64,000 bases of DNA from Lingula anatina (taxonomy: Eukaryota > Animalia > Brachiopoda): contig CM120648.1 in NCBI GenBank assembly GCA_051362555.1, positions 225,721 to 289,720 on the forward strand, given 5' to 3'. Of this stretch, positions 24,932 to 50,637 are shown piece after piece. The translations under genes and the position numbers were made by a program. How positions within the stretch are numbered: position 1 is the first letter of the stretch; each line of letters opens with the position of its first letter. A model generated the notes under the pieces. That model worked only from the letters and a program-made list of their open reading frames with translations, did no database searches and had not been told where the DNA came from.

Positions 24932-25015
24932 ATGGCGGGATTTCTTATTTCTAGACGCATTTTCAATGGTGTGCTATTGCGAAGTTTTTCAAAGAAGGTG
25001 CTTAGTTTGAAAAAG
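24932..25015 (+). pseudogene. Orphan first exon of the EF-hand gene family (donor mutated)
   Basis: Encodes MAGFLISRRIFNGVLLRSFSKKVLSLKK, homologous to exon 1 of genes 1 and 2. It is followed by GAGAGT instead of GTGAGT and has no exon 2 or 3 of its own. Confidence 0.8.
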
Positions 25016-25985: not shown

Positions 25986-26924
25986 ATGGCAGGGTTCTTT
26001 TTACGCGCGCGTATCTTAAATGGAGTGCTATTTCGAGGCCTTTCAAAGAAGGCAATTAACTTGGAAAGGGTGAGTAGAAGGCTACTAGTATATAACGATA
26101 TCGCATTCATTAAATATTGAAGTGACCATGATAAAACGTTATATATGAACTTATTTTTTTATATTTTGTATATTCCAGCCCCCACACGACTATCCGATTG
26201 TGACGGGGTCGGAACATTGGAGAAGAAAACTCCGCACACTATTCAAAGCGAGGGATACAGATGGAGACGGATATATCTCCCGAGAAGATTATGTGTTATG
26301 TGCAGACCGCGTTGCAAGTTACATGAACCTAAACGGTAAGTAAGAAAACGTCCTTTTGATAGTTTTTGAAAGCGGACTCTTTGTGTTCCGATACATAAAA
26401 ACTCTGGCCATAAAGTATTTCTCTTTAAAGTCTACATTTATTTTGAAACGCACGTTGAAATGATGTTTTCAAAAATATCATGTTATGGCTTACCTTGTCT
26501 GATTTACAAAATTTATATTTTAGAAACCCGGGCAATGGAGTTGAGGAATAAACAGTTGTTAATGTGGGAATTGGTTTCTAGTACTACGGACGCTTCGGGT
26601 GACATCAAGATATCTGAAGACGAATATATGTCCAATATACTCAACGGCAACCACAAATCTATGGGGATGGGTTTAGACATCGTTTGCTGCGACTTTGATT
26701 CCGTGGACGTTAACAGCGATGGTTTTATTTCCCAACAAGAGCACAAGGCGTTCTTTTACGGGAGGGGCATACCCGTAAAACACTCGGCGGATGTCTTCAA
26801 AGTTCTCGACACCGACGGGGATGGCAAGTTAAGCAAGGAGGAGTTCGCCCAAGGTTATGTGGACTTTATTTACAGTGAAGATGAAAGCAGTCCTCATGTT
26901 TCTTTCATGGGACCTCTCGTTTAA
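25986..26924 (+). CDS. SCP/luciferin-binding-protein-like EF-hand protein 1 (213 aa)
   Basis: Exons 25986-26069, 26179-26335 and 26524-26924 (GT-AG, phases 0 and 1). MAGFFLRARILNGVLFRGLSKKAINLER leader, DYP..GSEHWRRKLRTLF, EF1 DTDGDGYISRED, degenerate EF2, EF3 DVNSDGFISQQE, EF4 DTDGDGKLSKEE, C-terminus FMGPLV. Confidence 0.92.
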
Positions 26925-27074
26925 CGTATTGAATTGAGAACCGATCATTTTACTGAGCCATTTTTGTGAGGAATTTGCAATTATTACACAGCCTCCTAAT
27001 AAGGGCCCTGCACAGAAATTCAACTTAAAAAAAATATCCCGATGTAATGTAAATCACTAAGGACTATATTTTAA

Positions 27075-27620
27075 TTGCACACAAGAAATAGACAATATCT
27101 CGGACATTACCGAGTCCTTTCTCTTCAAAATTCGGAATATTGGCACTATATAGGAAACTATTTGGAACATTTACCTGCTGCTATATCAATACATGCATGG
27201 GTCATCCCAAGACTGAACTACTGCAACTCTGTACTATATGGAAGTCCAAATTACAAGATTCTTCTTTTGAAAAAGGAACCTGCCCTTTTAAAAATCTTGA
27301 AGACTACAGTGCATCAAAGGACAAACAGATATGTGACATAAGCACTGTGGATTCGGCATTTGGTACACTAACACTATAATAAAGGTTTTGAACCAATCCT
27401 CTGTTACAACTGTTTTACGTGCATTAGACACTTCTAAGCTGAATTACTGCGTCGCTGTACCATAGATGTCCCGATGATAAGATGAAGATTTGAAAACGTA
27501 TTGAGAACATTTAAATATAACAGCCTAGAGATTACCACACTGCTCCAATATCAAAACAGATGCTTTATAGTTACCAGTTCGAACTAGAATATGATATTGT
27601 AGCTCTCTCTTTTTTTTGCA
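27075..27620 (+). mobile_element. Degenerate L2/CR1-type LINE ORF2 3' relic
   Basis: IHAWVIPRLNYCNSVLYGSP matches the common LINE motif VHAFVxSRLDYCNSLLxGLP. A second, more decayed copy lies at ~27410-27600. Confidence 0.6.
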
Positions 27621-29032
27621 TAATCTAGCTCTATCCTATATTAGCGATCCAATGTAACATAATATTGAATAAGTAGAATATAATAAAAATATTACTATAG
27701 TGCACATGATATGACTTAAACGTAAAAATACCTACACTTATCCTTTTACCCTTGGAAAACTCGCTACTGAAAGTTGTCATTACTACACACGGGTAAATGG
27801 TGTGGTATGTTTATACCGTCTACTCGATCTCAATGTTTTCTCTGCACACTTTTATTCAGGTTCTTCTTTTTCTTAGAAAATATGAACACTGTCAATTTAG
27901 CCACATCATGATCAACGATATTCGTCCTGTCTTTTTGCAAGGAATAAAATGCATTTTAATTTAAAAATGGGTGGAGCGCGTATGGATAAATTAACCCATT
28001 TTTTAATTTTTGGGAGAGAAAAAAATTCGAAATTTGTGTCCCTTTGGTCCAGGAGATAATTTCTGAGTGTATTAAAACATAGTTAGTCTAAACGGCGAGG
28101 AAATAATAAAAACGATATGAAACATAGCCATCAAAACAAAATTTTTATAAGGTTATAACGTAAACGAGATACATGTATTTAAAAACACATTGCATCAGCG
28201 TCTCTGTCTGCTCTACTGTAGCACACCCTCAGGTGTGTCAGCTAGAAAGCACTATAATTCCAGTCCTGGGGGTGAAATGACCTTTCACTGGCTATAAACT
28301 GGTTATGAAATCCACAATGTCTTGCACGATAAAAAGCTATAAAAGAAGTATAATTATTATAAGCATAATTAATATAGAACTGAAAAGAATAACGCCACTT
28401 TTTCCCAGACACCGGCCCATTTGGTATGTAAAGAGACACTCTCGTGACGACATTTGCCTTCACGCAGTTTTGGGGGCAAAGTTATCACCCTTTTGCCTAG
28501 GTAACTTGAAACCAAAGACAAGCAAAACAAAGGAAGATGTCTGGAGACGCTTTGTAGCACGTGACGCGCCAGAGACGTGTGTGACAACCCCATTGTGGGA
28601 AGAGGGCCTCAAAGGGGGGGGGGGGGTGTATATAGTGAGCACAGTTCATAGGAAATGGGATCATCAACTTACTTATCACAGTTAATGGAAATTATTCATT
28701 TCTTATTGAAGATACAAGGAATATGAGCTCAAAATCGCGAATCAACAAATACCCTGTGTAATGGTTTCGTTTCACTAAGGTTGAAGAATTAAAGGCCGTA
28801 TTCACGAGTCACGGGAATGGGGTTCTTCACTGAAATAATATTTAGCGTTTCAAAAATAATAAAGTGGCTTTCAAGATTAACGAAAATACCCAATGGGAAC
28901 CTCTTTGAAAGGAACAAAATTCTAACAAAGATATCCATAGGGGCAAATTTTCTTGCATTGTGGGTTTCGTTTAAAAGGAAAAACATACAAGACACCCGTG
29001 TATTTTATCGACACTCCCAGCAGAACGATACA

Positions 29033-30260
29033 ATGGCGGGACGTCTTTTTTCTAGACGCATCTTAAATGGCGTGTTTTTCAGAAGTTTTTCAATGAAGGG
29101 GATTAATTTGAAAAAAGTGAGCGCAATAATATACACATATTAGAATAAATGTTATTGTAATAAACATTTCCTTATCAGAACATGACGTACAGTGCAGCCG
29201 AATTAAAGGGGAACTGGAATCTATAACGAATACAGTATTTTCAACCGATTGTGAAGTGTGTTTTGCGATATTATAGTATTTAAAGGCAATAAAAACAGAT
29301 GAATGTTATAAAACTTCTTTGACATTTACTAAGTGGTTTGAATCTAATCTTAAGTCTTCAAAACTTTGTTAGTAATATCTGACAAGAAGATTACGCCAGG
29401 CAATTTTGAGTCTCAAAGATATAGTTGAAACTATATCTTTGGAAAAAAATAGCAGTTTTCCAACGTTTTTTCAGGGGCCACATGATTATCCGGTTCCGAC
29501 AGGATCCGATCATTGGAGAAGAAAAATCCGCACTTTGTTCAAATCAATGGATACAGACGGAGATGGATATGTCACTAAAAAAGATTTTGAATTAAGTGCA
29601 AACCGCCTTTCAAGCTACCTGAATCTAAACGGTATTAAAAGTTAAAGATATATTTGTGGCTTAAAATTAAGAAAAAAAAATATAATGATACCTTCTTTGT
29701 CATAAAACTATCGATCGTTTTTAATCCTGTTTACAATTAAATATTTATTTATCCTCATTATCAATTTATTTATCTAATCAATTTCAAAATAGTCATTTTA
29801 ATTCTAAAAAAGCTTGTGGTAAGAAATGTGTGCAAATATTAAAATAACGGTTTGATGAATTTCAGAAAAGAAAGCGAAAGAGGTACTGAAGATGCGGCTG
29901 TTGGCGTGGGAGGTGGTTTCTAAAGGTAAACACGATGATTGCAGCATATCTGAAGACGAATATGTGTCCTCTATATATGATGCCTGCTCTGTATACTCAG
30001 AGCTATTTATTAAAATCATCATCAGTGAATGCGACTTCGCGGATGCTAACGACGACGGTTTCATAACTCGCGATGAACACAAGGCGTTCTTTTACGGGAG
30101 GGGTGTGCCTGTAAAACATTCGGCGGATGTCTTCAAAGTTCTCGACACCGACGGGGATGGCAAGTTAAGCAGAGAAGAATTCATTCAAGGTGCCGTGGAC
30201 TTCGTTTTTAGTGAAGACGAAAACAGTCCCTACATGCATTTCATAGGACCGCTAGTTTAA
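29033..30260 (+). CDS. SCP/luciferin-binding-protein-like EF-hand protein 2 (211 aa)
   Basis: Exons 29033-29116, 29475-29631 and 29866-30260. Leader MAGRLFSRRILNGVFFRSFSMKGINLKK, EF1 DTDGDGYVTKKD, EF3 DANDDGFITRDE, EF4 DTDGDGKLSREE, ends FIGPLV. Confidence 0.92.
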
Positions 30261-32332
30261 CAATTTATACGAACTTTGATTATTGTAAAAGTGTACACTA
30301 TTGCATAAACATTTTGAAATGGGACATTGCTATTTTGGAAATTATAGATCATGTGCACCACAATATATATGTTGGCATGGTAATCTCACAGCTAATTACT
30401 AGTATTGACTTGTGTAAACTGTGAATCGACCAGCTGGTAAATTTTAGATAGACAAAGCGCCAGAAATGGAGATAATCAGAAAATCCTAATTTGCTGTATC
30501 CTTGGGTGGTAAAAAACAGTGTACACTATCTGAACCCATAATTTTGTTCTGTCATTTAATTTCCTTCATATTTGTCAATAAAATGTGACCACCATGTAAT
30601 CTGCTGGGTAACTGATCATGGTTTTCCACTTAATATTTGAATAGTGGTAGTCGCTTTGAATTAAGACTTTATATACGCCTTATGTATATACGTTTTCAAA
30701 ATGAATTAGAAGATAAGAATAAAATGTGTCACCCAGCTTAGCCATTTAATAGCATAAAATCAAATATGTAACTATTTAAGCAAACCCTTTCATACATATA
30801 AGCAATTTCTGATACATGTAAAAGCGTATACGTTTGAGTACAAGTTTCAATAAAATTGCCGATTTCTAAATCTCAAAAATCACTTCTTCTTTTTGCTTTT
30901 CAACTAAATGTTGACTCGGGTTTACACCTCTTTTCTATCACCTGATTGATCTTGGATAAATCGTCATCAAATGGCGACAAAATCAAATTAGAATAGGGAC
31001 ATAAATTGTGAACAATCACGACCACATGTGTTTAGGCAAACAATGTACAATTAACATAGAAAAAAACAAACGTTGGACAAATTACTAGGTATCTTTGTCT
31101 CATCACATACTACCAGTTTTTTCCAGACTTTATTAGGCGATATGTTAATGTAAACAAGCCAGAAAATCCTAAAGCTCTTTCTCCAGTATATTTCACTACT
31201 TTTTCGAAACCCGTGCATAGTCATGATAACATACCCAATGACAAAAAGAAAATTATACATAATAAGTTATCTATTGAATGTTAGGCTTAAAATGTGTAAT
31301 ATTATATCGTGTCTTCCCAGTTTTGTTCCAGTAGACATCAAATTGCTGACAATTACCTGTTGGGACACAGTCTGTAGTCATTGAAACTTAAACTTAAATT
31401 CTATTTTTGTTACGATTGCCTTGGTAATTTTCACACACAGACGTACAGAATAAAATAATGCTTCTAGTCACACATTGCAGTGCGTGACACGACATAGCTG
31501 CAGGTGACAATTCGTTTCAAGTTAAATTGCACCACTAGATTCCATGAAGAGAAAAAAATAAGACCGACGATGAAGACATGGGAAATGTTTGAAACAGAAT
31601 CTTCCTCTTCATTTGATAAACATAGTAATCTCATACTTGATTTAGGACGCAAACTCTATCCAGATTATGCAATGCAAGAAAGTAAAGTAGGGTCTCTGAA
31701 ACTCATATTATTGCATATTTTGTTCTTGATTATAAAAAATCACGTGGACGATGAGCAGTACGTTGATTATTATATCCTATAATAATGTAATGATGCCAAA
31801 ACATTAACTGCATCTCTAGAAATATTTATCTGTGTATTTTTCCACACAAAGGAAAAACTGTGCTTCACCCAGAATAATTGAAGTCATAATCACTTGATAG
31901 GCTACAAATTAAAGTTACTCTAGTTGCAAGGTAGTTAATCCATATCAACACGTAGTATAGCAGGTAGTTAAGTTGAACAGGACCACAATTTTTGGTTACG
32001 TCTCGGCTGGAGACGAGTTCGTGCCCAGCATTCCCAACAAACCTACATAAGTGTATTATCTGAATTAACTGTACTCAGTAGTTATCGTTCCAGCTAAAGT
32101 AATCTGACATAAAGTGATGTGTTACGCGGTCAGGACTCCATTTCAAGATCAACATCCTTATGCTTTCCCACGTCAAAAACAGATGCCTCTTTCCTTAGAC
32201 AGATTGACAATAAACATTATAGACATTACATAAAATGCCCGCAGTGTCTGCTGTTATACTAAGGCAATGTAATACTTATCTCACCTTTCCTGTATACTTT
32301 AACACAGAAAAATGCAATTACTTTGTATATCG

Positions 32333-32410
32333 ATGGCGGGGTCGCAAGACTTTTCTCCGTGAGTGTTGAATCGACGATTTACCCAGAAAACGATAAATTT
32401 TTTAAAAAAG
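32333..32410 (+). pseudogene. Decayed orphan first exon
   Basis: ATGGCGGGGTCGCAAGAC...TTTACCCAGAAAACGATAAAT...AAAAAG, homologous to exon 1. Has an in-frame TGA and an ATAAGT (non-GT) donor. Confidence 0.7.
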
Positions 32411-32780
32411 ATAAGTATAATTATTAACTTGGATAAGTTTCCCAGTGACGTAGGTTCGCGGATAGTTTGTCGTTTCTTTCCTTTAATACCAAGAATATAA
32501 AAACTTTCCAGATCAAATATCACAACCTTATAAATACTGGTCCCATTAGCGATTTCCTTAACAATGGTAATCAAAATAACTCGGCTCATGCCTACAAATG
32601 CGTAGGGCAACAAATTAAAGAGAAACATTCTAAAAGTGAGGTAACAATCATCGACTGTCCTTTGATTGAAGGACGTGACCAACATATTTAACGTACCTAC
32701 ATAATGTTGGAGGCATACAGTGATTGACAATTCTGATACTTAAGGTACATTATGCAATGTGATTCCATTGTCAATCGTAA

Positions 32781-32816
32781 TATATAAATACGGTAGTTCT
32801 TGTCTCACCTCATTCG
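32781..32816 (+). promoter_or_regulatory. TATA box plus Initiator core promoter of EF-hand gene 3
   Basis: TATATAAA at 32781 and TCATTC (Inr consensus TCAKTY, A at 32812) 31 bp downstream, 38 bp before the ATG. The same arrangement precedes gene 4. Confidence 0.6.
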
Positions 32817-32849
32817 TGCAGTATCACACAGGGGGTTACAGATACAGCA

Positions 32850-33973
32850 ATGGCGGGGGTTGCGAGAATTCTCTCCAAGTGTTTTTCAAATGGAATAATA
32901 TATCGAAGTTTTACCCAGAAAGCGGTTAATTTGAAAAGGGTAAGTACAGCAGAGAGCGTGTTCACATCAAGTAGAACTACATGTATAAGACAATCAACTA
33001 CTATCACAGTTATGAAAGGATGTGCTTTCTTTAATTATTGTGCTTCTGCTGACGATTCAGGATAAATAATTAATTATAAATCGTAGTGAGATCATGTTTA
33101 TATAATCCATGTTTTTCAGACTCCGCAGGACTATCCGGCTTTAACTGGATCAGAACATTGGCGACGCAAAATCCGTACTTTGTTCAAAGCAAGAGATATA
33201 GACGGCGATGGATATATCACCAAAAAAGATTATGAAATGCATGTTCATCGTGTCTCAAGTTACATGAACCTTAATGGTAAGAACACTTTGAATTAACATG
33301 TTTTTTTTGTAATAATTATTTAAAATATTTTGATGATGAAAGAGTCGGCATACCGTTCAATGCCTGATGTGATCGTAAGATAGTTATGGCTGTTGAATTG
33401 TTTTAAATTGAGGTATATCATGGAAAGAATTAAGACAGCTGATATGTCAGAAAGTGCCGGCCTGTGAGCACCTCTAATCAATGAATGTTAAAAGGTATAT
33501 AAAAAAAATACTAGAAAAAGGAGGGGTTTCATATGACGTCAAGATAAGCATTTTCGGTTCTTACTGTTTCAGAGAACCAAGCGAAAGATTTAAAGAAATG
33601 GAAAATGTTCACTTGGGAATTACTTTCTGGAACCACAGAAGCTTCGGCTGACTTTCGGTTGCCTGAACACGACTACGTGTCCAACATGCTTGCTGCCTAC
33701 CCTACCATATTAGAGCGCATCGTGGATATCGCCAGTTGTGACTTCGACACCGTGGATATTGACGGTGACGGCTTCATCTCCCCACAGGAACACAAGGCGT
33801 ATTTCTACGGGTTTGGGGTCCCACTTAAGCACTCCACGGATGTCTTCAAAGTTCTGGACACCGATGACGATGGCAAGATTAGCAGAGAAGACTTTGTTCA
33901 AGGTTTTGTGGACTTCATTTTAAGTGAAGATGAAAACAGTCCACATGCTTGTTTCTTTGGACCGCTTGTATAA
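32850..33973 (+). CDS. SCP/luciferin-binding-protein-like EF-hand protein 3 (215 aa)
   Basis: Exons 32850-32939, 33120-33276 and 33573-33973. Leader MAGVARILSKCFSNGIIYRSFTQKAVNLKR, EF1 DIDGDGYITKKD, EF3 DIDGDGFISPQE, EF4 DTDDDGKISRED, ends FFGPLV. Confidence 0.93.
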
Positions 33974-34161
33974 TAAAAAAAAGAAGCAAATACCAGTTTG
34001 TTCAAGACTGTTTTGGCTTCCTTATGAGCTATTACATTTGTTTCTTTGGGCCATTTGCATAACAATTTAATCTGATAATCTTATATTGGTAACGCGGATA
34101 TATTATTTACTTACTTTATTTACTTACAATATGAGTTCTAATAATCTGATGATGTCACACG

Positions 34162-34338
34162 CAGGCCCGTGGCCAGGAATTTCAAAAGGGGGTCTTTTTT
34201 CTGGAAAAGTACCGAGTAGACCTTTGACTATGGAACCTTCCGGTACGCAAATAAAATTTAACCAGAAGGGGGCCTTTTCCTGACAAAAAAGGTGGTTTGT
34301 TCGAACCCCACGAGACCCCCCCCCCGGCTACTGGCCTG
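34162..34338. mobile_element. Small MITE
   Basis: Imperfect TIRs CAGGCCCGTGGCCAGG / CCGGCTACTGGCCTG. Partial homologs at 36596-36647 and ~43288-43394. Confidence 0.55.
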
Positions 34339-35738
34339 AACACATATGTTTGTCTGATATTATTTTATAATTACTTTGCTTGGAATTTATGAAATTGTAT
34401 AAGATAATATAATCTGCCTACAACTAAATTGTTCATCTGTTAGCATATTGAATGTAGTAATATGGAATGTTATCAGGAATAGGGAAAATCATATCACTTT
34501 CTGTAACTTAGGACAGGTAATGGTACATGTATGTACAGAATATGAAAACTTACGAGTGAGGCTGCTTTCGCTTGACGCTCAAACCCTTTACTAGGCACTT
34601 CTCAGAGTTATGAAGGCTGGTTGCTTTTTACACCACCAAAAACTTTCATAGTAGCTTTAACGTACTTATTCTATCTTCTCAAAAGTAATTAAACGGTAGT
34701 AACCGTCACTTCAATGTGCATGCATTTAGACAAAGGTTTGTAAAGAGTTTTTACCCATTTTCTCTCTCTCATTTCAGAAAAAAAAAAAAATTAAAGCAAC
34801 TGTACATAAGAAACTATTTAGTTATCATGCTGTACCCGAATAGCAATTCAATTTCTTTTATGTGTAAATTTTAATTTGTATATCACTGGTTGAATAAACT
34901 CTAATATTACCTTAAAGCAGCCTATTAGTCACATCCAGTGCGTAAATACACATTTACTCCCATACAGCATCGCATTTTCTTTTCTATACGCGACAAGAAG
35001 CCAAAACTACATCAGTAATTATATATTGTTTTTATTGAATTCTAAATAAAGGTCTAATTTTACAGGTGTACGGTGTCCCAGACAACAAATTGTAAGCGCG
35101 TACGTGTAATCAAAATCTTTGTGATAGAGAAAGGCAATTTCCAGATTTATTCCTTACAACGTCCAAACATACTAAAGTACACTTAACCACTTCGTTATTA
35201 TCAAGCGTTATCAAACGTCACTGATTACCCGCCTAGCTCAAAGTATATGCTTATTTTCTGTAAAGAAAATACAGTTTTGGTGAACACGGATACTTTATCG
35301 TTCTTTATTATAATATCAAGAATATATAATTACGTACCAGGTCAAACATCAAATGCTTATAAACAATGGTACCGATTGGCGAGCAACATGACACTCGTAA
35401 TCTAAGATGACACCAGTGTTTAATGCTGGTAAACACAATTCTTGCTCAGAGTCAGTTCATGCATACTTATACATAGAACAACAGGTGTCGTGAGATTAAA
35501 TACAGAGAAACATTCTAAAAGTGATGTAATAAGCTTCGAATGTCTTTTGATTGAAGGACGTGACCAACATATTTAACGTACCTACATAATGTTGGAGGCA
35601 TACAGTGATTGACAATTCTGATACTTAAAGTACATTATGCAATGTGATCCCATTATCAATCGTAATATATAAATAAGGTAGTTCTTGTCTCACCTCATTC
35701 GTGTAGTCTCACACAGAGGATTACAGATATATACAGCA

Positions 35739-36649
35739 ATGGCGGGGGTTGCCAGAATTCTCTCCAAGTGTTTTCCAAATGGAATAATATATCGAAGTTT
35801 TACCCAGAAAGCGGTTAATTTGAAAAGGGTAAGTACAGCAGAGAGCATGTTCACACAAAGTAGAACTATAAGACTATCAGAGTTATAAAAGGATGTGGGC
35901 TATTGTGAAAGTTGACCCAACAGTGACAGAATCAATTTGCTGGTAATTGAATGGAACGCCTAAAACCCCATTACATCTAACATCTTGCCTCCACCGAGTA
36001 ACGTATTACATAATAAATTAGGCCTCTTTTAAAGATTACCGAGCTCTACATCACGAAAGTACATGTAAAGTTGTTTTTTTATGTTACTATTCGTTACACT
36101 CCAAGGATCCTCTTAAACAGGCAACCCTGTTATTTGGCTGAGACATTGCCACCGTAAAGGCCAAAAACAACGATTGAAATTGCTGAAGTACAAACAATAA
36201 TTCCTAAAAATGCATAATTGTAAGAGCTATAGGATATCACAGTGACAGGAAAAAACAACGATAAACTCTGCTAGCTAGATGTATACAAAAACCGAATACA
36301 TTTGTCTTCCAAAAATCGCTAAAACAGTAAAGACTTTTGGTATTTCTTCGGTGCTTTCTTTAATTCTTGTGCTTCTGCTGGCGATTCAGGACTTAAATGT
36401 ATATCTGAATTGGGTTCATGGTTATATAATCCATGTTTTCAGACTCCGCAGGACTATCCGGCTTTAAATGGATCAGAACACTGGCGACGCAAAATCCGTA
36501 CTTTGTTCAGAGCAAGAGATATAGACGGTGATGGATATCTCACCAAAAAAGATTATGAAATGAATGTTCATCGTGTCTCAAGTTATATGAACCTTGTTCG
36601 AACCCCACGAGACCCTCCCCCCCCCCCCCCCCCCCGGCTACTGGCCTGA
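35739..36649 (+). pseudogene. Truncated EF-hand gene 4 (exons 1-2 only; exon 3 deleted)
   Basis: Exon 1 (35739-35828) and exon 2 (from 36443) are nearly identical to gene 3. At 36595/36596 the sequence jumps to the equivalent of 34299, removing the exon-2 donor, intron 2 and exon 3. The frame reads on into VRTPRDPPPPPPPRLLA stop. Confidence 0.88.
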
Positions 36650-38022
36650 GCACATATGTTTGTCTGATATTATTTTATAATTACTTTGCATCGAATTTAT
36701 GAAATTGTATAAGATAATATAATCTGCCTACAACTAAACTGTCCACCTGCTGGCATATCGAATATAGAAATATGGAATATACTATCAGAAAAATAAGGAA
36801 ATTTAACACTTACTATAGCCTTGGGCAGGTCACAATATGCACAGAATATGAAAATTTACGAGTGAAGCTGCTTTAGCTTGACGCTCAAACCCTTAACTGG
36901 GCACTTCTCAGAGTTATGAAGGGATGGTTGCTTTTTACACCAAAAAACTTTCATAGTAACTTAAACAGTTATTATATCTTCTCAAAATTGATAACATGGT
37001 AGTAACCAAATCTTCATTGTGCATGCATTTAGATAAAAGTCCTTAAAAAGAGATTTAACCCTTCTGCTGTCTCTCATTTTAACAAAAATGTTTGCCACTT
37101 TATTTTAGAAATTATATTGTAACCTTATATTTTATTCACTTTACCCGAATAGCAATTCAATTTCCTTAAAATGTGAATTTTAGTCTTTATATCAATGGCT
37201 GAATAAACTCTTATCTTATCTTATCTTAAAGCAGTCTGTTTGTCACATTCATTATGTGCTTTAATACGTGCATTTACTTCCATACAGAATCGCATTTCCT
37301 TTACTACATGCACCAAGAAGCCAAAACAACATCAAAACTGCCAGATCGTTCGATTAGATTCTAAACAAAAGTTCAATTTTACAGGGGCATGGTGTCCTTG
37401 ACAACAAACTGTAAGCACGTGCAATCAAAATCATTGTGATAGAGAAACGCACATTCCAGATTTATTTCTTACAAGTTCCGAACATACTAAACTGCCACTC
37501 TGTCATTATCAGAAGTTTATCAAACGTCGCTGATTGCCCGCCTGGCTAAAATATACAGTATACTTATTTCATGTAAAAAATACGCATCAGGTGAACATGA
37601 TTACCTTGGCGTTTCTGTCCTATAATAGCAAGTACATGATGAATTAAAGTTTAAACATCAAATGCTTATAAATAATGGGACCGATTACACTGGTAATGTA
37701 AAATAACGCCAGTGTTTAATACTGGTAAACGCAATTCTTGATTGGCGTCAGTTCATGCAAACTAATACATAGGACAATAGGTATTGTAAGATTAAAAAGA
37801 AACATTCTAGCAGTGAAATAACAAGCTTCGACTGTCTTTTGATCGAAGAACGTGACCAACATATCAAACATACCCGCACACTTTTGGAGCTATGCACTGA
37901 TTGACAATAATGCTACTTATGTTACTAGTGCGCAAAACGATTCCATTGTTAGTTGTTATGTTTAAAGTATTTCTGGTCTCACCTCATTCGTGCAGTCTCA
38001 CACAAAGGTCTACAGATAATTA

Positions 38023-39591
38023 ATGGCGGGGTTTGCAAGGATTCTAACCAAGTATTTTCCAAAAGGAATGTGGTATCGAAATTTTACTCAGAAAACGGTT
38101 AATTTGAAGAGGGTAAGTGTAAATGTAGATGTCTAGCATGTTTATATGAAGTAAAGTCTGTGTCAGACTGCACTAGTAACCTTTTTGCAACCTGTTAGCA
38201 ACCTCAGCCGCAAGGAGGTTGCCACCCCACTGTAGGTTTAAAAGTGGCCATGGTCGCATAAGGTTGCCAAAAGGTCGCCAGCGGTCGTTGATACATGAAG
38301 GCCATTTTTGTGCACCGATAACCAGTGCAACTGAAGATAAATATCGGTATCTCAAAAAAAGGAAGAGCACATAATATAGCGACGTAACAACATATTACTC
38401 CCTCTAGTGCCACAAACTGTGCAATCTAGGACATAGCATGAGGGGAAAAATCAAATACAAAGGGATTTGTCCACGGTAATTTGTTCCTTTGATTTGTTCT
38501 AACCAAGAATGGAAAGACGTTGTTAAATATCGAATGTCATTCCGTGGTGCTTTGTAACATCTATGGAAAAGTATGCTTATGGTAACGGAGATGAATGAAA
38601 TTAAACTCAATTTATAAAATAATAAAACTGGCTATTTTCATACTTCAATCGCATGCACCCAAGCGTTCACCCTATGCTTATACTATACCAAATACCATCA
38701 CATACGACAATCAGTGGACTTTGTAACAAACATTGATATTGCAGAAAGAAAACACTTAGAGACAAGAAAAAATGGTAACCGAACGACTTCACATAGAGAT
38801 AACATACAATCCGTTTACTATAGAACCCATGGGACTACCCGGCTATAAAAGGAACGGAGCATTGGAGACGGAAAATCCGCACTGTGTTCAGAGCAAGAGA
38901 TACAGACGGTGATGGATATGTCACTAAAAAAGATTATGAACTGAGTGTTCATCGTGTCTCCAGTTACATGAACCTTAACGGTGACTTGATGTCTTAATTA
39001 GCTTAAGTTATTAACATCTGGGATATGTCACAAAAACAAGGAAAGTTTTTCCTCCACAGTCATTTCCTGTGAGTAACTTTAATTGATAAATTTTAATTTT
39101 ATATAAATTCATGGCTAAAATAAATATTTGAAGAATAACTATGTTTCATATGCATGTATGTAACTAATGTATATACCAGTATGTTTTCTGCTGTTTCAGA
39201 AAACCAGGCGAGTAAATTACTGAAATGGAAAATTTTTATTTGGGAAAAAATCTCTGGCGGTTCGCCTGACTTTCGGTTATCTGAAGACGAATACGTGTGC
39301 AGCGCGCTTGTTCACTACACTACAGTATCGAAGACCATTGTGGATGTTGCTTCGTGTTATTTCGACTCCATGGATCTTGACGGCGAAGGCTTTATTTCTC
39401 CACAAGAACACAAGGCTTTCTTCTATGGGTGGGGAATCCCCATAAGTCTCTCTGAGGATGTCTTCAAAGTCCTTGACACCGACGGTGATGGCAAGATAAG
39501 CCGAGAAGAGTTCGTCCAAGGTTATGTGGATTATTTTTTAAGTGAAGACGAAAACAGTCCATACACTTGTTTCTTTGGACCACTTGTATAA
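38023..39591 (+). CDS. SCP/luciferin-binding-protein-like EF-hand protein 5 (212 aa)
   Basis: Exons 38023-38112, 38824-38980 and 39200-39591. Leader MAGFARILTKYFPKGMWYRNFTQKTVNLKR, EF1 DTDGDGYVTKKD, EF3 DLDGEGFISPQE, EF4 DTDGDGKISREE, ends FFGPLV. Confidence 0.92.
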
Positions 39592-39774
39592 TAAAGAAAA
39601 TCAATATTTACCAATATATGTCCACATACAGCTCACTTCATGTTTCTTGGAGTAAAATAGTTTTCACCTAGACGCATGGGGATGGTATTTTATTGTAACT
39701 GTATCATTTTTGAAGTTGATATTTGGTATAATGAGAATGTGGCTAATCATATTGTTATTGTTATTATAACAAAA

Positions 39775-39947
39775 TGTTGACGGCGACGGGCCTAACCAAA
39801 TGGGAGCACTTGGGAGCACATGGCGTTTTCTAGGGGTATGGAATCCCCTTGAAATACTCGCCGGGTGTCTTTAAAGTTCTGAACACCGACGGCGATGGCA
39901 AGATAAGCAGAGAGGAGTTCACCCAAGGCTACGTGGATTTCATTTGA
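39775..39947 (+). pseudogene. Degenerate exon-3 fragment (EF3-EF4) of the EF-hand family
   Basis: GACGGCGACGG...GAGCACATGGCGTTT...GGAATCCCCTTGAAATACTCG...AAAGTTCTGAACACCGACGGCGATGGCAAGATAAGCAGAGAGGAGTTC, with indels and an early stop. Confidence 0.85.
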
Positions 39948-41482
39948 ATTTTCTTGGGGCTCCTTTAATAATATGGACACTAATAACCCAATAATACACC
40001 ATGGATACTTTGGAGCTCGTCTAATTTTCTTTGTTTGGGGACTGTGACAATGTAAATAAAGGAATGGCATTTACCTATAACAATGTACCTACATTTGTTT
40101 ATTAGTTTATTGATATATCTTAATGATATTTAATATGAATGGAACCACAAATAGGGGATGTCTACATGTACGGCTTCTTTGGGATGGGGAAGAAAAAGAA
40201 ATGCTCCTGCACATTACGTGCAGCACATACATAATATTTATTCCAAACAATGGTTTCATTTGTTTTTATAACTGATAGAAATATAATATATACAAATGAT
40301 ATTTTAACGTATGTTTTAAATTAATTTTCATTTTTCATAATTTTATTTTTAGTCTCTCATAGATCTATCCATAACTGCGTTAACATCCCCAAGGACAAAA
40401 AGAAAATTATACATAATAAGTTATATTTTGAATATTAGGCTTAACATGTGTAATACTATATCGTTTCTTCTCATTGGGGCACCAGTTTTGTTCCAGTAGA
40501 CATCAATTTGCTGACATTTACCTGTTGGGACACAGTGTGTAGCTATTGGTACTCAAACTTCAATTCTATTTTTGTTACGATTGCCTTGGTACCTTTCACA
40601 CACAGTCATACAGGATAAAGGGATGTTTCTGGTCAGACATTGCAGTTCTTGACACGACATATAGCTGCAGGTGACGATTCGTTTTATTTCAAGTTATATC
40701 GCACCACTAGATTTCATGAAGAGAAATATACATTTATCTTACATATACTCTTACATTAGGACCGACGATAAAGACATAGGAGATATTTGAAACAGGATCG
40801 CCCTCCTCATTCAGTAAACATAGTGTTCTGATACTTTATTAAGGACGTATACTCTATCCAGATAACACAGAGCAAGAAAGTAAAGTAGGGTTTCTGAAAC
40901 TCATATTATTGCATATTTTGTTCTTGATTATAAAAAATTACGTGGACGATGAGCAGTATGTTGGTTATTATACCCTGTAGTTATGTTCCCAAAAATGATG
41001 CCAAAACATTAACTGCATCTCTAGAAATATTTCTCTACACAAAGGAAAGACTGTGCTGCACCCAGCATAATTGAAGTCATAATCACTTCATAGGCCACAA
41101 ATTAAAGTTACTCTAGTTGCAAGGTAGTTAATCCATATCAACACAGAGTATAGTTGAAGAGGACCGCAATTTTTGGTTACGTCTCGGCTGGAGACGAGTA
41201 CGTGCCCAGCATTCCCAACAAACCTACATAAGTGTATTATCTGAATTAACTGTAAGTAATCTGACATAAAGTGAGGTGATACGCGGTCAGGACTCCATTT
41301 CAAGGTCAACATCATTATGCTTTCACACGTCAAAAATAGATACCTCTTACCTTAGACAGATTGACAATAAACATTATAGACATTACATAAAATACCCGCA
41401 GTGTTTGCTGTTATATTAAGGCAATGTAATACTTATCTCACCTTACCTGTATCACAGAAAAATGCAATTACTTTGTACATCA

Positions 41483-41563
41483 ATGGCGGGGTCGCAAGAC
41501 TTTTCTCCTCGAGTGTTGAATCGACGATTTACCCAGAAAGCGATAAAATTTAAAAAAAAAAAG
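41483..41563 (+). pseudogene. Decayed orphan first exon (duplicate of 32333)
   Basis: MAGSQDFSPRVLNRRFTQKAIKFKKKK followed by ATAAGA, with no GT donor. Confidence 0.7.
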
Positions 41564-42002
41564 ATAAGAATAATTATTAACTTGGATAAGTTTCCCAGTG
41601 ACGTAAGTTCGCGGATAGTTTGTCGTTTCTTTCCTTTAATACCAAGAATATAAAAACTTCGCAGGCCAAACATCACAGCCTTATAAATACAGGTCCCAAT
41701 CGCGGTTTTCATAACAATGGTAATCAAAATAACTCGGTTCATGCCTTCAAATGCGTAGGGCAACAAATTAAAGAGAAACATTCTAAAAGTGAAGAAACAA
41801 GCCTCGACTGTCCTTTGATTGGAGGACGTGACCAACATATTTAACGTACCTACATATTGCTGGCGGCATAAAGTGAATGACAATTCTGATACTTAAGATA
41901 CATTATGAAATATGAGTCGATTGTCAACCGTAATTTATGAGTAAGGTAGTTCTTGTCTCACCTCATTCGTGCAGTATCACACAGGGGATTACAGATACAG
42001 CA

Positions 42003-43125
42003 ATGGCGGGGGTTGCGAGAATTCTCTCCAAGTATTTTCCAAAAGGAATGAGATATCGAAGTTTTACCCAGAAAGCGGTTAATTTGAAAAAGGTAAGTAC
42101 AGCAGAGAGCGTGTTCACACAAAGTAGAACTATAAGACAATCAACTACTATCACAGTTATGAAAGGATGTGCTTTCTTTAATTCTTGTGCTTCTGCTGTC
42201 GATTCAGGATAATTAATTAATTATAAATCGTAATGAGATCATGTTTATATAATCCGTGTTTTTCAGACTCCGCAGGACTATCCGGCTTTAACTGGATCAG
42301 AACATTGGCGACGCAAAATCCGTACTTTGTTCAGAGCAAGAGATATAGACGGCGATGGATATCTCACCAAAAAAGATTATGAAATGAATGTTCATCGTGT
42401 CTCCAGTTATATGAACCTTAATGGTAAGAACACTTTGAATTAATATGTTATTTGTGAGAATGATTGAATATAATTTTAATGCTGAAAGATGCACGCTGTG
42501 CAATGCCTAATGTGAACATAAGATAGTTATGGTTGTTGGATTGTTTTAATTTGAGGTATATATATATCATGGAAAGAATTAAGACAGTTGATATGTTGGA
42601 AATGGGCTGCCTTTGAGCACCTATAATCATTGAATGTTCAAAGGTATATATAAAATGATACTGGAAAAAATGAGGGGTTTCAAAGGGTGTCACCGATAAC
42701 CGTATTGTGTTCTTGCTGTTTCAGAAAACCAGGCAAAAGATTTAATGAAATGGAAAATGTTCGTGTGGGAAACACTTTCTAGAAGCACAGAAGCTTCAGC
42801 TGACTTCCGCTTGCCTGAAGACGACTTCGTGTCCAACATGCTTGCTGCCTACCCTATCATAGTAGAGACGATCGTGGATGTCGCCAGTTGTGACTTCGAC
42901 ACCGTAGATGTTGATGGCGACGGCTTCATCTCCCCACAGGAACACAAGGCGTGTTTCTACGGGTTTGGGATCCCTCTCAAGCACTCCACGGATGTATTCA
43001 AAGTTCTGGACACCGACAGCGATGGTAAGATAAGCAGAGAAGATTTTGTTCAAGGTTTTGTGGACTTCTTTTTAAGTGAAGATGAAAACAGTCCACATGC
43101 TTGTTTCTTCGGGCCACTTATATGA
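42003..43125 (+). CDS. SCP/luciferin-binding-protein-like EF-hand protein 6 (215 aa), paralog of gene 3
   Basis: Exons 42003-42092, 42267-42423 and 42725-43125. Leader MAGVARILSKYFPKGMRYRSFTQKAVNLKK, EF1 DIDGDGYLTKKD, EF3 DVDGDGFISPQE, EF4 DTDSDGKISRED, ends FFGPLI. Confidence 0.93.
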
Positions 43126-44482
43126 TAGAAGGAAAAGAAGCAGGGAAGCCATTACCTTTGTTTCTTTGGAACATTTGCTTAACAGTTTAATTTGATAATC
43201 TTATATTGGTAACGCGTATACATTTGTGATAATATTTTGTTTCATTTAATTACAGTATGGGTTCTGATAATCTTTTAAATGTAACGTGCAGGCTCTTAGC
43301 CATCAATTTCAACAAAATAAATAAATAAATAAAATATAAAAATAAATAAATAAAATAAAAAGTTTTTTCTGTGGGGGTCTTTTTCTGGAAAAGTGATATT
43401 ATTTTCGAATTAATTTGCTTGGAAATTATAAAATTGTATAAGATAATATAATCTGCCTATTACTAAACTGTCCATCTGTTGGCATATTGAATATAGTAAA
43501 AAAGGGAAATTTAGCACTTACTGTAACCTTGGGCAGGTCACAATATACACAGAATATGGACATTTACGGGTGCAGCTGCCTTCGCTTGACGCCCAAACCT
43601 TTACTGGGCACTTCTCAGAGTTATGAGGGATGGTTACTTTTTACACCACGAAAAACTTTCATAGTAACTTTAACATAGTCATTTTATCTTCTCAAAATTC
43701 CCTTTAAATGTGAATTTACTCTGTAATTCAATGGCTGAATAAACTCTTGTCTTATCTCATCTTAAAGCAGTCGGTTTGTCACATTCATTATGTGCTTTAA
43801 TATGTGTATTTACTTCCATACAGCATCGCATTTGCTTTTCTACGCGCACCAAGAAGCCAAAACAACATCAGCACTCCCAGATCGTTCTATTAGATTCTAA
43901 ACAAAAGTTCAATTTTACAGGGGCACGGTGTCCTTGACAACAAACTGTAAGCACGTGCAATCAAAATCATTGCGATAAAGGAACGCACATTCCAGATTTA
44001 TTTCTTACAAGTTCCAAACATACTAAACTGCCACTCTGTCATTATCAGAAGTTTATCAAACGTCGCTGATTGCCCGTCTGGCTAAAATATACAGTATACT
44101 TATTTTATGTAAAAAATACACATCAGGTGAACATGATTACCTTAGTGTTTCTTTCCTATAATAGCACGAATATGATGACTTTAAAGTTTAAACATCAAAT
44201 GCTTATATAAACAAGAGGACCGATTAGCGAGTAACATAACACTGGTAAAATGACACCAGTATCGTAAGATTAAAAAGAAACATTCTAGCAGTGAAGTAAC
44301 AAGCTTCGAATGTCTTTTGATTGAAGAACGTGACCAACATATCAAACGTACCCGCATATTGTAAGAGCTATGCACTGATTGACAATAATGTTACTTAAAT
44401 TACAGGTGAGCAAAATGATTCCAATGTTAGTTCTGGTCTCACCTCATTCGTGGAGTCTCACACAGAGGTCTACAGATAATTA

Positions 44483-46030
44483 ATGGCGGGGTTTGCAAGG
44501 ATTCTAACCAAGTATTTTCCAAAAGGAATGTGGTATCGAAATTTTACTCAGAAAACGGTTAGTTTGAAGAGGGTAAGTGTAAATGTAGATGTCTAACATG
44601 TTTATATGAAGTAAAGTCTGTGGCAGACTGCACGAGTAACCTTTTTGCAACCTGTTAGCAACCTCAGCCGCAAGGAGGTTGCCACCCCACTGTAGGTTTA
44701 AAAGTGGTCGTTGATACATGAAGGCCATTTTTGTGCACCGATAACCAGTGCCACTGAAGATAAATATCGGTATTTCAAAAAGGGAAGAGCACATAATATA
44801 GCGACGTAACAACATATTACTCCCTCTAGTGTCACAAACTGTGCGAACTAGGATATAGCATGAGGGGAAAAATCAAATACAAAGACATTTGTCCACGGCA
44901 GTTTCTCCCTTTGATTTGTTCTAACCAAAATATATCGAAATCTAAAGACGTTGTTAAATATCGAATGTCGTTCCGTGGGGCTTTGTAATATCTATGGAAA
45001 AGTATGCTTATGGTAACGGAGATGAATGACATTTAACTCAATTTATAAAATAATAAACCTCGCTATTTTCATACCTCAATCGTTTGCACCCACGTGATAA
45101 CTGTTATCTATATCTTATACACAGACATTAACCAAATACCATCAAATTCGACAGTCAGTGAACATTGTAACGCTCATTGATATTGTATAAAGAAAACACT
45201 TACAGGTAAAGACAAGTACAGTGGTAACTGTACGACTTCACGTAGAGATCATACTGTATACAATCCGTTTATTTTAGAACCCATGGGACTACCCGGCTAT
45301 AAAAGGATCGGAGCATTGGAGACGGAAAATCCTCACTGTATTCAGAGCAAAAGATACAGACGGTGATGGATATCTCACTAAAAAAGATTATGAACTGAGT
45401 GTTCATCGAGTCTCCAGTTACATGAACCTAAATGGTAACTTGATGTCTTAAGTTTTTAACATTTGACATATGTCACAAAAATAAGGAGGGGTTTTCCTCC
45501 ACAGTCCTTTCCTGTGAGTAACTCTAATTGACCATTCTAACTTTATAAAGTAATGCCTAAAATAAATAACGGCGATGTTTAAAATATGTAACTAAATAGG
45601 CCGGTATGTGCTTTCTGCTGTTTCAGAGAAACAGACGAGTGAATTACTGAAGAGGAAAATGTATTCTTGGGAAAAAGCCTCTGGAGGTTCAAAAAATTCG
45701 CCTGATTTTCGGTTATCTGAAGACGAATACGTGTGCAACGTGCTTGTTCACTACCCTGTAGTATCGAGGACCATCGTTGATATCGCTTGTTGTGATTTTG
45801 ACTCTATAGATATTGACGGTGACGGATTTATTTCGCCACAAGAGCACAAGGCCTTCTTTTACGGGTGGGGAATCCCTGTAAAGCACTCGGCGGATGTCTT
45901 CAAAGTTCTAGACACCGACGGCGATGGCAAGATAAGCAGAGAGGAGTTCGTGGAAGGTTTTGTAGAATATTTTTTTAGTGAAGACGAAAACAGTCCATAC
46001 ACTTGTTTCTTTGGACCACTTGTATCATAA
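44483..46030 (+). CDS. SCP/luciferin-binding-protein-like EF-hand protein 7 (216 aa), paralog of gene 5
   Basis: Exons 44483-44572, 45278-45434 and 45627-46030. Leader MAGFARILTKYFPKGMWYRNFTQKTVSLKR, EF1 DTDGDGYLTKKD, EF3 DIDGDGFISPQE, EF4 DTDGDGKISREE, ends FFGPLVS. Confidence 0.92.
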
Positions 46031-49000
46031 AGAAAATCAATATTTTCCAATATATGTCCAAATACAGCTCATTTTATGTTATTGGGTTTCCTTTAAATAT
46101 ACGCAATATTTAATCAAAAATACGGACATGCGTGGTCATTTTATTTTGTGATGAGAAAACATTAATTGTAGCTGTAGTTAAGTTTATCTGTACATATCCC
46201 CTTTATAGAAAAATATAAATGTGTATGCTGCATCAAAGATATAAAACTGAAGCCAGCTTTACTTTATTCTCCAGATATTAAAGTTTTGGTAATCATAAGT
46301 ACTCCTTGTAACAATCTGTAATGCAGTCGTAATTGTAGCTGCTGTTATGATAGTCTTAAATGTTGCAATCAATATTTCAATTATTTGTATTTTAGTATTG
46401 TTCATTAGTTTTTGTCTAGTATTGGTGTACATACAATAACCACCTCTCACGCCCGGTATTTTGGCGCCCCTGTCTACGTGCCTGCATTGTAAATTGTCGC
46501 TCTCTTTGACAACGCTAGACGATTCAATAACAATTTTGACCTTAAAGAAAATCAGTGTAAGATTTTTTTATTTTTGACTCATAATGGAATGATGCTTTTA
46601 CAGCCAATTTATAGAATCGAAACGAAACTTTATTTACAAATAATATATTAACGTACTTTATTTTGAGTCTCTCATAGTTCTATTCAAAATTGCGTTATTA
46701 TTATGTTTCATTAAGTATCTATTCTTATATGTATATGGGTGAGAGTTTAACGTCGTAATACATACAACTGTGTTGAACACAGCAATCTGACAACCTCGGA
46801 TAGGCGTTTGTAATCAGATCTTTCAGTGTCTAGAACATAACGGTTTACCTGTACCAGGCCAACTATGTCAAACTCATGACGCTAAGAGCGCTTCACATTT
46901 ATCATAACAAAGGGCCCAATTGGCTTCAGGTTTACAGACAGACTGTATTTTTGGCTGTTGATTATGTTAGCAAGAATAAATAATGCTCTTCTATAATGTT
47001 CGGTGTACAGTTTCAGTTAGGTACACCCGACCAGAATATAAACGCAAAGACCCAACTATAAGTCAAGCGTTAATTCACAAACACTGATCAGAACCAGTCT
47101 CGTTATTTTTAACTTGCTTTGTCGGCGTCTCAAATGTCGCAAGGTGCTAAAAGTTATCGCCATAATCAAATACAGCTAGTGTAACTAAGATGGTGGCGGT
47201 GTTTCAAAATTGTAAGAAAATATTTTAGCATTTATTGAATAAAGTATTCAAACATCCAACGGAGTGCATTTGTGGATCCAGATCCGTTCTTATGAAATTG
47301 GAGGGACGGTAACGTGACCATAAGCAGGGCAACCCAGAGAAACGGACCGAACGAATGCACGCACCATGCATGCTTTATAGTGTTTGTAGAGAGCATCTTG
47401 AAGTGAAAAATTACATTACAAAGACAAGGATAGGTCAGGGCAAGCTAAAGTCATTGGAAAGTTATAATTCAGTTATGAGCCATACAGGGTCTTACGGCTT
47501 GTCTTGAATAGGTACCATTTCAACAAGCGATCCAACTTGACAGTGGCGCCATCGTCGTGTCTTTTAAGATTGTTGAAATAACAATACCAAGCACTGCAAA
47601 ATGACTTAACAGGTCAAATGCCGTCTGTTTATGACCCTTAGGCCGATTCACTATATAAATACACGTATAAATAAACTCGGGAACTTTGCATGTTCATGCA
47701 ATACATTTTACCTCTACCAACACAATATATGACACTACAGGTACAGGGGTTGCAATAAGGTATCCAATTGATATGTCCAATATATCCAATTTTAATTAAA
47801 ATACGTCTCTGATCAATGTATATTTGTTGCGATACCACGTGTATTATGGTTTGAACCTTCTTCATCTCAAAACGCCGTCATAATAAACGCTAGGCAAACT
47901 GTTTTAGAACTTACATGCCAGCAATAATGTTAAACAATCTTTCACCAGCTGTGTCCAAGACACAGAGGAATTTTTATTACTAATGCTTTTACGTGAGGCC
48001 ATATTTTACTTATACCAACGAGTGCAATTTCCGTAGACTTGCAGACAAACGTGGAACGACGTATAAACCACCCAGCGTGTCTCCAGACAGACTGATTACG
48101 ATACCTTGCTGTATGAGTGAAATTCATGATGGGAACCCCACACGAACAAAAAACAACATTTAAACAATTCCGGAATCGCGGGCAGTTAAGCTGATCACCA
48201 AATATCAGTCCTAGTATTTCTGGCCGAAATAATTTATGACATCCCTTCATATTTAAATTATTCATTTTGCTGACTGCAACTTCGCCACCCTCACTGATTA
48301 TTTAAAAAAAAACTTGCATTGAGACACGTGTCACCTCCGGGTTAGGAAACAGTGTTGCAGACTTACAGAAAAAATGTCAAGCAAGCAAAAAATACAAACA
48401 TTACACATATGTACACATTTTGTTACCGATAGACCATGGGCTTCTTCGGGATGTCCAAGGTTGTCTTTTCCAGCCACAAACATCTGCATGACGTCAGTTT
48501 CTTGTACGTGTCCAAATTACATAAACATGTACAAACGAGTCTAGTTTACCTAATTAGTACAATCGAGTCCAGTTTACATAACAAAGCTGTTTAGTTATAC
48601 GAACATATAACTAAGGGGTTGTACTCTTTCGAATAGTAATTTTGCAAATGAATCATTCCTCAGCCAATGCATAACCAAGAGAAGAGGTAGGCAAAAAGAA
48701 ATTTTATTCTCTCCAAGTCCCTAACTGTATTCCTTTGAGGAAGGTGAGGCAGCTGCTTCCCTGAAGCAACTGCACTGTTTTCAACACCTATAATATTTTA
48801 CTGTAAAAATACGGTAGCACATTACTTTGCTCTCATATGGAAGCAAATACATCTTTCGCACACTCACATCTCTCTCTCTCTCTATAAACAAGGCAAAGGA
48901 AAAAATGTTAAATACTATTAGAAACATGTTAAGTCTTTTCTCTATTTTCCAGTCATGTAAGTAAAAACTTGAATACTATACGGTTTTAGCTGGGGTATAT

Positions 49001-49250: not shown

Positions 49251-50637
49251 CACACACTGGACAAAAGAAGTGTCACCCCCTAACTCAGAGTAATAAAAGT
49301 AGGCAGATCTTGGGTACTTATAATGCTTGGTCTACTTATAATGTGACTAATGAGTATAAAACTGCTATACCATGGAATTGTATTGTTGGTCTTGTGCATG
49401 TACAGCAAATGTTATGCCTGTCTTCCTCCAATATGACAAGATACAGGCAATTATCTAACGGTTATAGGTGCAAGTTATTAACATGAAGAGGCGGAATATA
49501 AGCAATGTCAGAATAGCGATACAATTGAATTGTTCAGTCAGAACCGTGCAGAGGGTCTGGTCTTGGTATAGAAACACTGGATCAAGAGACAAATTGCCTC
49601 TGATGGGTCGTCCAAGAAAAAATACTGGCCGTGAAGACCGACGACTGATTTTGATGTCCAGGTTGTGAAAGTTCGACACTGCTTGTCAGTTGACAACACA
49701 GTGGAACAATTTCACACATAAGAATGTGCCTGTGAAAATTGCTAGGCGTCGGTTACATGCTCAGAGAGTGTACAGCAGGGTAGCAAGACTGAAACCTCTT
49801 ATATCGTTGCAAAACAGGCAACGTAGAGTAAACTAGGGTCAACAGGATCTGGAAATGGACAGATCATGACAATTGGTCCTATATATTTATTCTGATGAGT
49901 GTCGCTTTGGTCTGACCTCTGATGACAGACGGGTACTATGCTGGCAAACTGCTGGTAAAGCATTTGAACCACATGCACTGAATTTTCGAACCCGGAGCAG
50001 CATATTCATCATGGTGTGGGGCTGCATCAGCATCCGTGGCTTGGGCGCATTGATAGTGGTTAATGGAAACATGAATCACTAGAAATATATCGATATTTTG
50101 GAGTCAGGCTTGCTACCATCTAATACTAACATGTTTGGTGACAGGAATTATCCATTTGTTCACCAGGATGACAATGCTCCTTGTCACAGGCCCAGAGCAG
50201 TTGATGATTGGTTTGACCAACAGGACATTCGCAGGGTGATGTGGCCTGCCCAGAGTCCGGGTGCAAACATAATAGAAAATGTGTGGAATGATATGTCAAA
50301 ACTTTTGACAAATGCCCGTCTAACCAGCAGAGAAACTCTGTTATATTCAGTGTTCCATGCTTGGGCCAGCATAAGCCCTGAACGCATCAAACAATTATAT
50401 GAAACCTTGCTTCGTAGACTGGCACCTATTATTAAGTCACGTGGCTATGCCACTAAGTACTAATTTTGGACTTGAAACTGCATATTTTGGTAGAATGTAT
50501 ATTTTGTTCTCATTTTGTGATTTTTTTGTGAAATTTGATGTTAATAAAATGATACCAGGAGCATATCATTCCACAGTCATTTATCTCCCCCATAGTATTG
50601 GCTCGGTAGGGGTGACACTTCTTTTGTCCAGTGTGTG
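49251..50637 (+). mobile_element. Tc1/mariner DNA transposon (DD34E), defective, copy 2
   Basis: Same TIRs, with clean TA target duplications at 49249-49250 and 50638-50639. 1387 bp and highly similar to copy 1. Same transposase motifs, with stops. Confidence 0.95.

Follow-up and report, generated by a model that had tools for sequence, protein, structure and literature searches.

Canonical EF-hands 1, 3 and 4 (EF1, EF3 and EF4) together with a non-binding EF2 define the group to which sarcoplasmic calcium-binding proteins (SCPs), calexcitin and CBP belong, and classical SCPs are cytosolic. Here we consider a tandem cluster of genes for SCP-like EF-hand proteins in a 64,000-nucleotide stretch of the genome of the brachiopod Lingula anatina (assembly GCA_051362555.1, contig CM120648.1, positions 225,721 to 289,720; hereafter the window, with positions counted from its first letter). 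Each gene copy begins with a separate short exon encoding a basic leader, which probably acts as a mitochondrial presequence.

The closest described systems share the core of these proteins. Nereis SCP (2SCP/1Q80) has the same fold (Z 19.2, rmsd (root-mean-square deviation) 2.9, 170 aligned residues, 28% identity; profile E 3.4e-29), with canonical EF1, EF3 and EF4 and the G-P-L C-terminus in common, but it has no leader and its chain starts at query residue 41. Renilla CBP (2HPS/2HQ8), a luciferin binder, is the top Foldseek match (Z 18.4-18.7, 24-26% identity) and aligns from residue 35-36; its solved chain lacks a leader, and its likeness to the Lingula proteins is one of fold only. Calexcitin and JH diol kinase align across the whole core (Z 14-19, 18-24% identity), with no leader in the aligned range. 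The photoproteins obelin, aequorin and mitrocomin (Z 15-16, 16-19% identity), again alike in fold only, have an N-terminal arm that falls on model residues 26-35 and so overlaps the last part of exon 1, and place nothing on residues 1-25. The insect CBP family, represented by Drosophila NP_511070.1 (annotated 'sarcoplasmic calcium-binding protein'), combines an SCP-type core (hhalign probability 99.9, E 2.7e-33, 29% identity) with a basic extension carrying R-x-Y/F-S before the core. Unlike the Lingula leaders, the insect extension is ~100 aa long and has an acidic S-D run before the core, and only the cores align. The cluster proteins are thus an SCP-like variant and not classical SCPs, since the 28-30 residues of exon 1 are extra, 2scp aligns from residue 41 and no internal Met occurs before residue 53.

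Exon 1, the protein core and transcripts

The cluster comprises seven tandem genes, G1 to G7, all on the + strand; six are intact three-exon genes, which splice by GT-AG introns, the first in phase 0 and the second in phase 1, into stop-free open reading frames of 211-216 aa, and G4 is truncated. The earlier note, made from the DNA letters, had assigned a dedicated first exon to each EF-hand gene. Seven exon-1 copies of 28 or 30 codons in phase 0 are indeed present, all with a GT directly after them, although the one of G4 leads into a gene broken in exon 2; and the interval 25986..44572 proposed for the family contains all seven copies, but G7 continues to 46030.

Exons 2 and 3 match Pfam EF-hand families, and each of the six proteins has three canonical EF loops (EF1, EF3, EF4). 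An AlphaFold model built on the six-sequence alignment (pLDDT, the predicted local distance difference test score, 78) shows a compact four-EF-hand fold with a G-P-L-type C-terminus, for which 2hps, 2scp and calexcitin are the top matches by Foldseek and VIA. Residues 1-23 have pLDDT below 50, with a low-confidence helix at residues 2-11. Together with the alignment starts on the query (41 for SCP, 35 for Renilla CBP and 26-35 for hydrozoan photoproteins), this indicates that the fold does not include the first ~20-25 residues. The remainder of exon 1, ~9 residues past the predicted cut, likely stays in the mature protein as an N-terminal arm, judging from the model, so that the exon would be dedicated to the leader in its first ~20-25 residues and not over its whole length. 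The paralogs differ most in EF2 and the following helices.

RNA reads were sampled from seven of the nine listed runs, with 6-30% of the reads in each run. Within this sample, the exon 1-exon 2 junction expected by the earlier note was found for G1 (one read in run X1 and four in X2, stranded, + strand), for the G3 type (15 reads with GT..AG and 14 shifted, in X7) and for G6 (5, 3 and 3 reads in X7, X8 and X9, and 12 more with one other letter between). Most X7-X9 reads match at 90-95%, which identifies the gene type but leaves it uncertain whether they come from G3, G4 or G6. Joints of G4 exon 1 with G6 exon 2 were considered as 6.4-kb splicing and rejected; we attribute them to a diverged allele or paralog. 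The sampled reads of X3 and X4 included none on the cluster genes.

After exon 1 the next Met comes at residue 53-79, level with EF1 or past it, and an intact protein therefore needs exon 1. Translation from a downstream ATG, the alternative raised earlier, would find no Met at the core start of any window copy. Such a Met stands exactly at the core start in ten long-leader paralogs (P0017, P0022, P0025, P0026, P0028, P0030, P0031, P0033, P0034 and P0126), where it would permit a leaderless form. The RefSeq models P0016, P0018 and P0029, which have no leader, may be leaderless forms or incomplete models.

Leader composition and the arginine motif

The traits that the earlier note had ascribed to the leaders (basic, poor in D/E, without a hydrophobic core, with a shared Arg motif) hold for all seven exon-1 copies. 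Their net charge is +5 to +8, with one E in G1 and no D/E in the rest, and the best 13-residue Kyte-Doolittle mean is 0.54-1.34, which leaves no hydrophobic core. R-x-F/L-S/T occurs in 7/7 window leaders, its R standing 12 residues ahead of the end of the exon. D/E is absent from the first 20 residues of 6/6 window proteins vs 1/32 leaderless homologs.

For a broader view we assembled 30 leaders, six from the window and 24 from copies outside it, the latter known as protein-database models (21 named L. anatina; P0123, P0126 and P0149 placed by similarity only). Left out were the window alleles P0001-4, P0006 and P0008, the partial models P0019, P0021, P0023 and P0035, the fused or odd models P0007, P0014, P0122 and P0032, and the leaderless or short ones P0016, P0018, P0029 and P0132. 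The 30 leaders span 19-92 aa and are largely unalignable beyond composition and the distal Arg motif. Their 1368 residues include 30 D/E, compared with ~18% D+E in the cores, and are rich in L (12.4%), R (11.2%), K (8.5%) and S (7.7%). Arg at -12 from the leader end is found in 20/30 leaders, in 14/24 outside the window and in 6/13 long leaders. None of the 30 reaches a KD11 of 2.0 (window maximum 1.25), that is, none has a signal-peptide h-region. A Pfam scan of the leader alone, made with two leaders, matched 0 families, and residues 1-45 gave no usable match in the ESM Atlas. In PMC6769257, mitochondrial transit peptides are described as R/L/S-rich with Arg at -2, -3 or -10, and the leader features agree with those given there for transit peptides and for the sites of the mitochondrial processing peptidase (MPP) and Icp55.

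Chance and descent were considered in several ways. Among 433 open 29-codon stretches that start with ATG and lie outside genes, the charge criterion is passed by 33, the motif is present in 26 and four combine the two. These counts are to be read with the provisos that the criteria were chosen after the leaders were seen and that the seven copies, being paralogs, are not independent. The ratio of nonsynonymous to synonymous substitution (dN/dS) among the seven leaders is 0.10-0.73 in 12 of 21 pairs and 1.55 in a near-identical pair, eight pairs giving no value. The cores of G1 and the other copies are separated by a dS of 0.83-1.79; when drift was simulated at 0.9 substitutions per site, frame, charge and motif were kept together in 11-12 of 5000 copies. 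The helical moment of the window leaders is 0.56-0.70, a value reached by 315-1292 of 2000 shuffles. None of the window leaders stands clearly above its own shuffles. Over the larger set, z is above 0 in 25/30 leaders. We rejected the helical moment as stand-alone evidence, since most single leaders are not above shuffles.

Putative import, its competitors and leaders elsewhere

What follows is our reading of the sequences. The mitochondrial interpretation of the earlier note stands as a prediction, favoured by the composition, the fixed Arg motif, the missing h-region, the splicing and the position outside the fold. The leader would direct the precursor through TOM/TIM23, MPP would cut with Arg at -2 and Icp55-type trimming (Arg at -3) would follow, past the R-x-F/L motif. 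The predicted mature product of 191-195 aa, acidic (isoelectric point 4.8-5.3) and starting ~9 residues before the exon 1 end, would bind Ca2+/Mg2+ at three sites and buffer or sense Ca2+. Its location would be the matrix rather than the intermembrane space, and on balance we expect the imported SCP-fold proteins to act there as a Ca2+ buffer or sensor.

Leaders of this kind are a trait of all seven cluster copies, as had been noted, but they are not confined to the cluster, being found in the 24 further Lingula-family models and in insect CBP; the homologs in other phyla to which the earlier note pointed thus do include one with a comparable leader. Of 85 more distant full-length single-domain matches, 72 begin close to the core or at it. 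The other 13 carry at least 19 extra residues, and several of them belong to the arthropod family that includes Drosophila NP_511070.1, the product of a gene we take to be CG1435. In this insect family (P0388, P0299-P0413; 117/120 scored), 112 proteins have a net charge of at least +2 in the first 30 residues and 96/117 extensions contain R-x-F/Y-S, counts that carry no null expectation and, for the motif, refer to extensions of ~100 aa. SCP-like proteins from ENA (P0040, P0051, P0236, P0252) also have basic, presequence-like extensions and form their own branch. In quick trees, each of the three groups (Lingula, insect and ENA) has its own branch amid leaderless proteins; forcing the leader groups together was not rejected by the approximately unbiased (AU) test (p-AU 0.09 and 0.064; 0.09 for the insect CBP grouping). 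A single origin of the leaders is accordingly neither shown nor rejected by these sequences. Insect CBP is a candidate for an EF-hand protein of mitochondria, and the comparable leader of the Drosophila protein makes the idea directly testable in a model organism.

Fly proteomics bears on this candidate. In PMC9644064, fly CBP occurs in the crude mitochondrial pellet with 5 peptides and falls to ~0.16 in clu and Sod2 mutants. The same source also weighs against import: the pellet contains the leaderless Scp1 (21 peptides) and Scp2, and the table of overlap with MitoMax lists Scp1 and lacks CBP. CBP was likewise not found in the tables of PMC3771901, the readable files of PMC11666730 or the silkworm APEX set of PMC8126250. 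For a mitochondrial CBP, the fly proteomics is uninformative to mildly negative. On the same side of the balance stand the absence of Arg at -12 in 10/30 leaders, an amphipathicity exceeding shuffles at p<0.05 in only 5/30, the fair frequency of basic acid-poor peptides encoded by AT-rich DNA (33/433), and the exon 1-exon 2 joints of G2, G5 and G7, none of which is listed in the sampled RNA runs, depth over these three genes being low or nil. Even granting import, the sequences do not distinguish buffer, sensor and ligand-carrier roles.

An imported protein might serve chiefly to carry a small hydrophobic ligand under Ca2+ gating, like Renilla CBP or the sponge okadaic-acid-binding protein. 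Renilla CBP leads the Foldseek matches with a Z of 18.4-18.7, tied with the 19.2 of Nereis SCP, the profile lists the okadaic acid binding protein third, and a large family that diverges most at EF2 and the following helices would fit ligand diversification; against this, identity to CBP is just 24-26%, the profile ranks Nereis SCP above it (E 3.4e-29 vs 1.6e-26) and no ligand is known, so that we regard this role as unlikely. Somewhat less unlikely, though still well short of even chances, is that the leader is an uncleaved basic tail of a cytosolic protein, binding acidic membranes, nucleic acid or its own acidic core. The acidity of the core, the weak per-sequence amphipathicity, the predicted order of residues 24-30 and the missing fly CBP in the MitoMax overlap all agree with such a tail. 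However, leaders of 19-92 aa that cannot be aligned save for composition and a distal Arg motif fit a targeting signal better, Arg and Leu exceed Lys, and there is no Gly2 for myristoylation.

The calcium phosphate shell of Lingula makes one think also of secretion, with the leader as an atypical signal and the proteins acting in the shell or the extrapallial space, and PMC13425148 reports EF-hand domains from every lophotrochozoan shell proteome that it compares. We consider this highly improbable given an h-region in 0/30 leaders, and the Lingula shell-proteome supplement of that paper, which lists XP_0134 ids, gave 0 matches to the accession prefixes of the cluster and related models. Hardly more probable is a translated but functionless exon 1, an extension drifting since its inheritance by tandem duplication. 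Three decaying orphan exon-1 copies lie nearby, and five Lingula models (P0016, P0018, P0029, P0132, P0032) have no basic leader, four of them nesting among long-leader paralogs. Yet frame, charge and motif have been kept over a core dS of 0.8-1.8, which drift rarely permits (the 11-12/5000 of the simulation), and 2/3 orphans have lost the frame or the motif context, whereas 7/7 gene-linked copies keep both.

In animals, the handling of matrix Ca2+ is commonly credited to phosphate buffering, with EF-hand proteins (MICU, carriers) at the inner membrane. If the presequence reading is true, a soluble SCP-type protein that bears a presequence would be a mitochondrial Ca2+ handler of another sort. 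We put the chances at about even that there is a class of matrix SCPs, soluble EF-hand buffers or sensors combining the SCP fold with a presequence, in several phyla. The great expansion of the Lingula family makes one ask whether it may be linked to phosphate biomineralisation. The full combination, an invertebrate matrix SCP class that includes insect CBP and in which ~30 Lingula copies help to cope with calcium-phosphate loading of the matrix in the building of an apatite shell, is improbable when all its parts are taken together. The surprise is limited in that the fold, the family, the RefSeq models and the gain of a presequence by an added exon all have precedents. The likely mitochondrial relocation, the Lingula expansion and the insect CBP parallel were not found described, though automatic database predictions may flag the leaders. 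We found no description of an SCP with mitochondrial targeting in a literature coverage outside which most subscription journals fall, and the word 'sarcoplasmic' is absent from the text and supplement of the Lingula genome paper (PMC4595640).

Layout of the cluster and other features of the window

Coordinates are collected in Table 1. All intact proteins except G5 reach 97-99.5% identity with L. anatina RefSeq models, so the window represents another haplotype or assembly: G1 (213 aa) is 97% identical to XP_013407490.1, G2 (211 aa) 98% to L. anatina model P0008, G3 (215 aa) 98% to XP_013407489.1, G6 (215 aa) 99.5% to XP_013407486.1 and G7 (216 aa) 98% to XP_013407487.1. For G5 (212 aa), the nearest of the six L. 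anatina models compared is at 85%. The RefSeq models begin with the same leaders as the window genes. G4 (35739-36650) is without intron 2 and exon 3, its exon 2 being fused to a copy of DNA from downstream of G3 (~34298). Because RefSeq XP_013407488.1 has the same leader as G4 and a full exon 3, the truncation is a deletion allele or an assembly difference. Two pairs of duplicated blocks, 31227-34185 vs 40381-43312 (85%) and 37781-39644 vs 44259-46080 (84%), explain the G3/G6 and G5/G7 pairs.

Table 1. Exons of the cluster genes, isolated exon-1 copies and presumed promoter motifs
Feature	Position	Strand	Remarks
Orphan exon-1 copy, 28 open codons, leader-like	24932..25015	+	GA in place of GT donor; no own exon 2
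G1 exon 1, leader, 28 codons	25986..26069	+	cut predicted after residue 19; joint to exon 2 in RNA
G1 exon 2, P-x-D-Y-P arm and EF1	26179..26335	+	
G1 exon 3, non-canonical EF2, EF3, EF4, G-P-L end	26524..26924	+	
G2 exon 1, leader, 28 codons	29033..29116	+	no RNA joint listed
G2 exon 2	29475..29631	+	
G2 exon 3	29866..30260	+	
Degenerate exon-1 copy	32333..32417	+	in-frame stop at codon 10
TATA-like box (32781) and initiator-like TCATTC (32810), 5' of G3 ATG	32781..32815	+	consensus match only
G3 exon 1, leader, 30 codons	32850..32939	+	cut predicted after residue 21; RNA joint
G3 exon 2	33120..33276	+	
G3 exon 3	33573..33973	+	
G4 exon 1, leader, 30 codons	35739..35828	+	
G4 exon 2	36443..36595	+	cut just before its donor; exon 3 absent at this locus
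G5 exon 1, leader, 30 codons	38023..38112	+	no exon 1-exon 2 joint listed
G5 exon 2	38824..38980	+	exon 2-exon 3 joint in RNA
G5 exon 3	39200..39591	+	
Degenerate exon-1 copy	41483..41555	+	no GT donor at expected place
G6 exon 1, leader, 30 codons	42003..42092	+	RNA joint
G6 exon 2	42267..42423	+	
G6 exon 3	42725..43125	+	
G7 exon 1, leader, 30 codons	44483..44572	+	no RNA joint listed
G7 exon 2	45278..45434	+	
G7 exon 3	45627..46030	+	

Upstream of the G3 ATG, the closest in-frame stop is at 32778, with no intervening Met. RefSeq XP_013407486.1 starts G6 at ATG 41937, adding 22 residues, at a site that matches the position of the G3 TATA-like box. We rejected this ATG as probably a wrong start; it lies upstream of an initiator-like site at 41963. 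In other alleles, G1 could use the orphan exon-1 copy on its 5' side as an alternative first exon. An exon 3 fragment (EF4 region, 72% to G3) lies 3' of G5 at 39828-39944.

Elsewhere in the window, long open frames at 4951-5409 (-) and 10157-10897 (-) resemble exons of another gene and have no Pfam match at E 0.1. Broken reading frames at 13496-14492 and 50083-50463 are two related copies, which we take to resemble Tc1/mariner transposases. A tandem array with a 42-base unit, encoding a 14-residue repeat, occupies 7940-8300.

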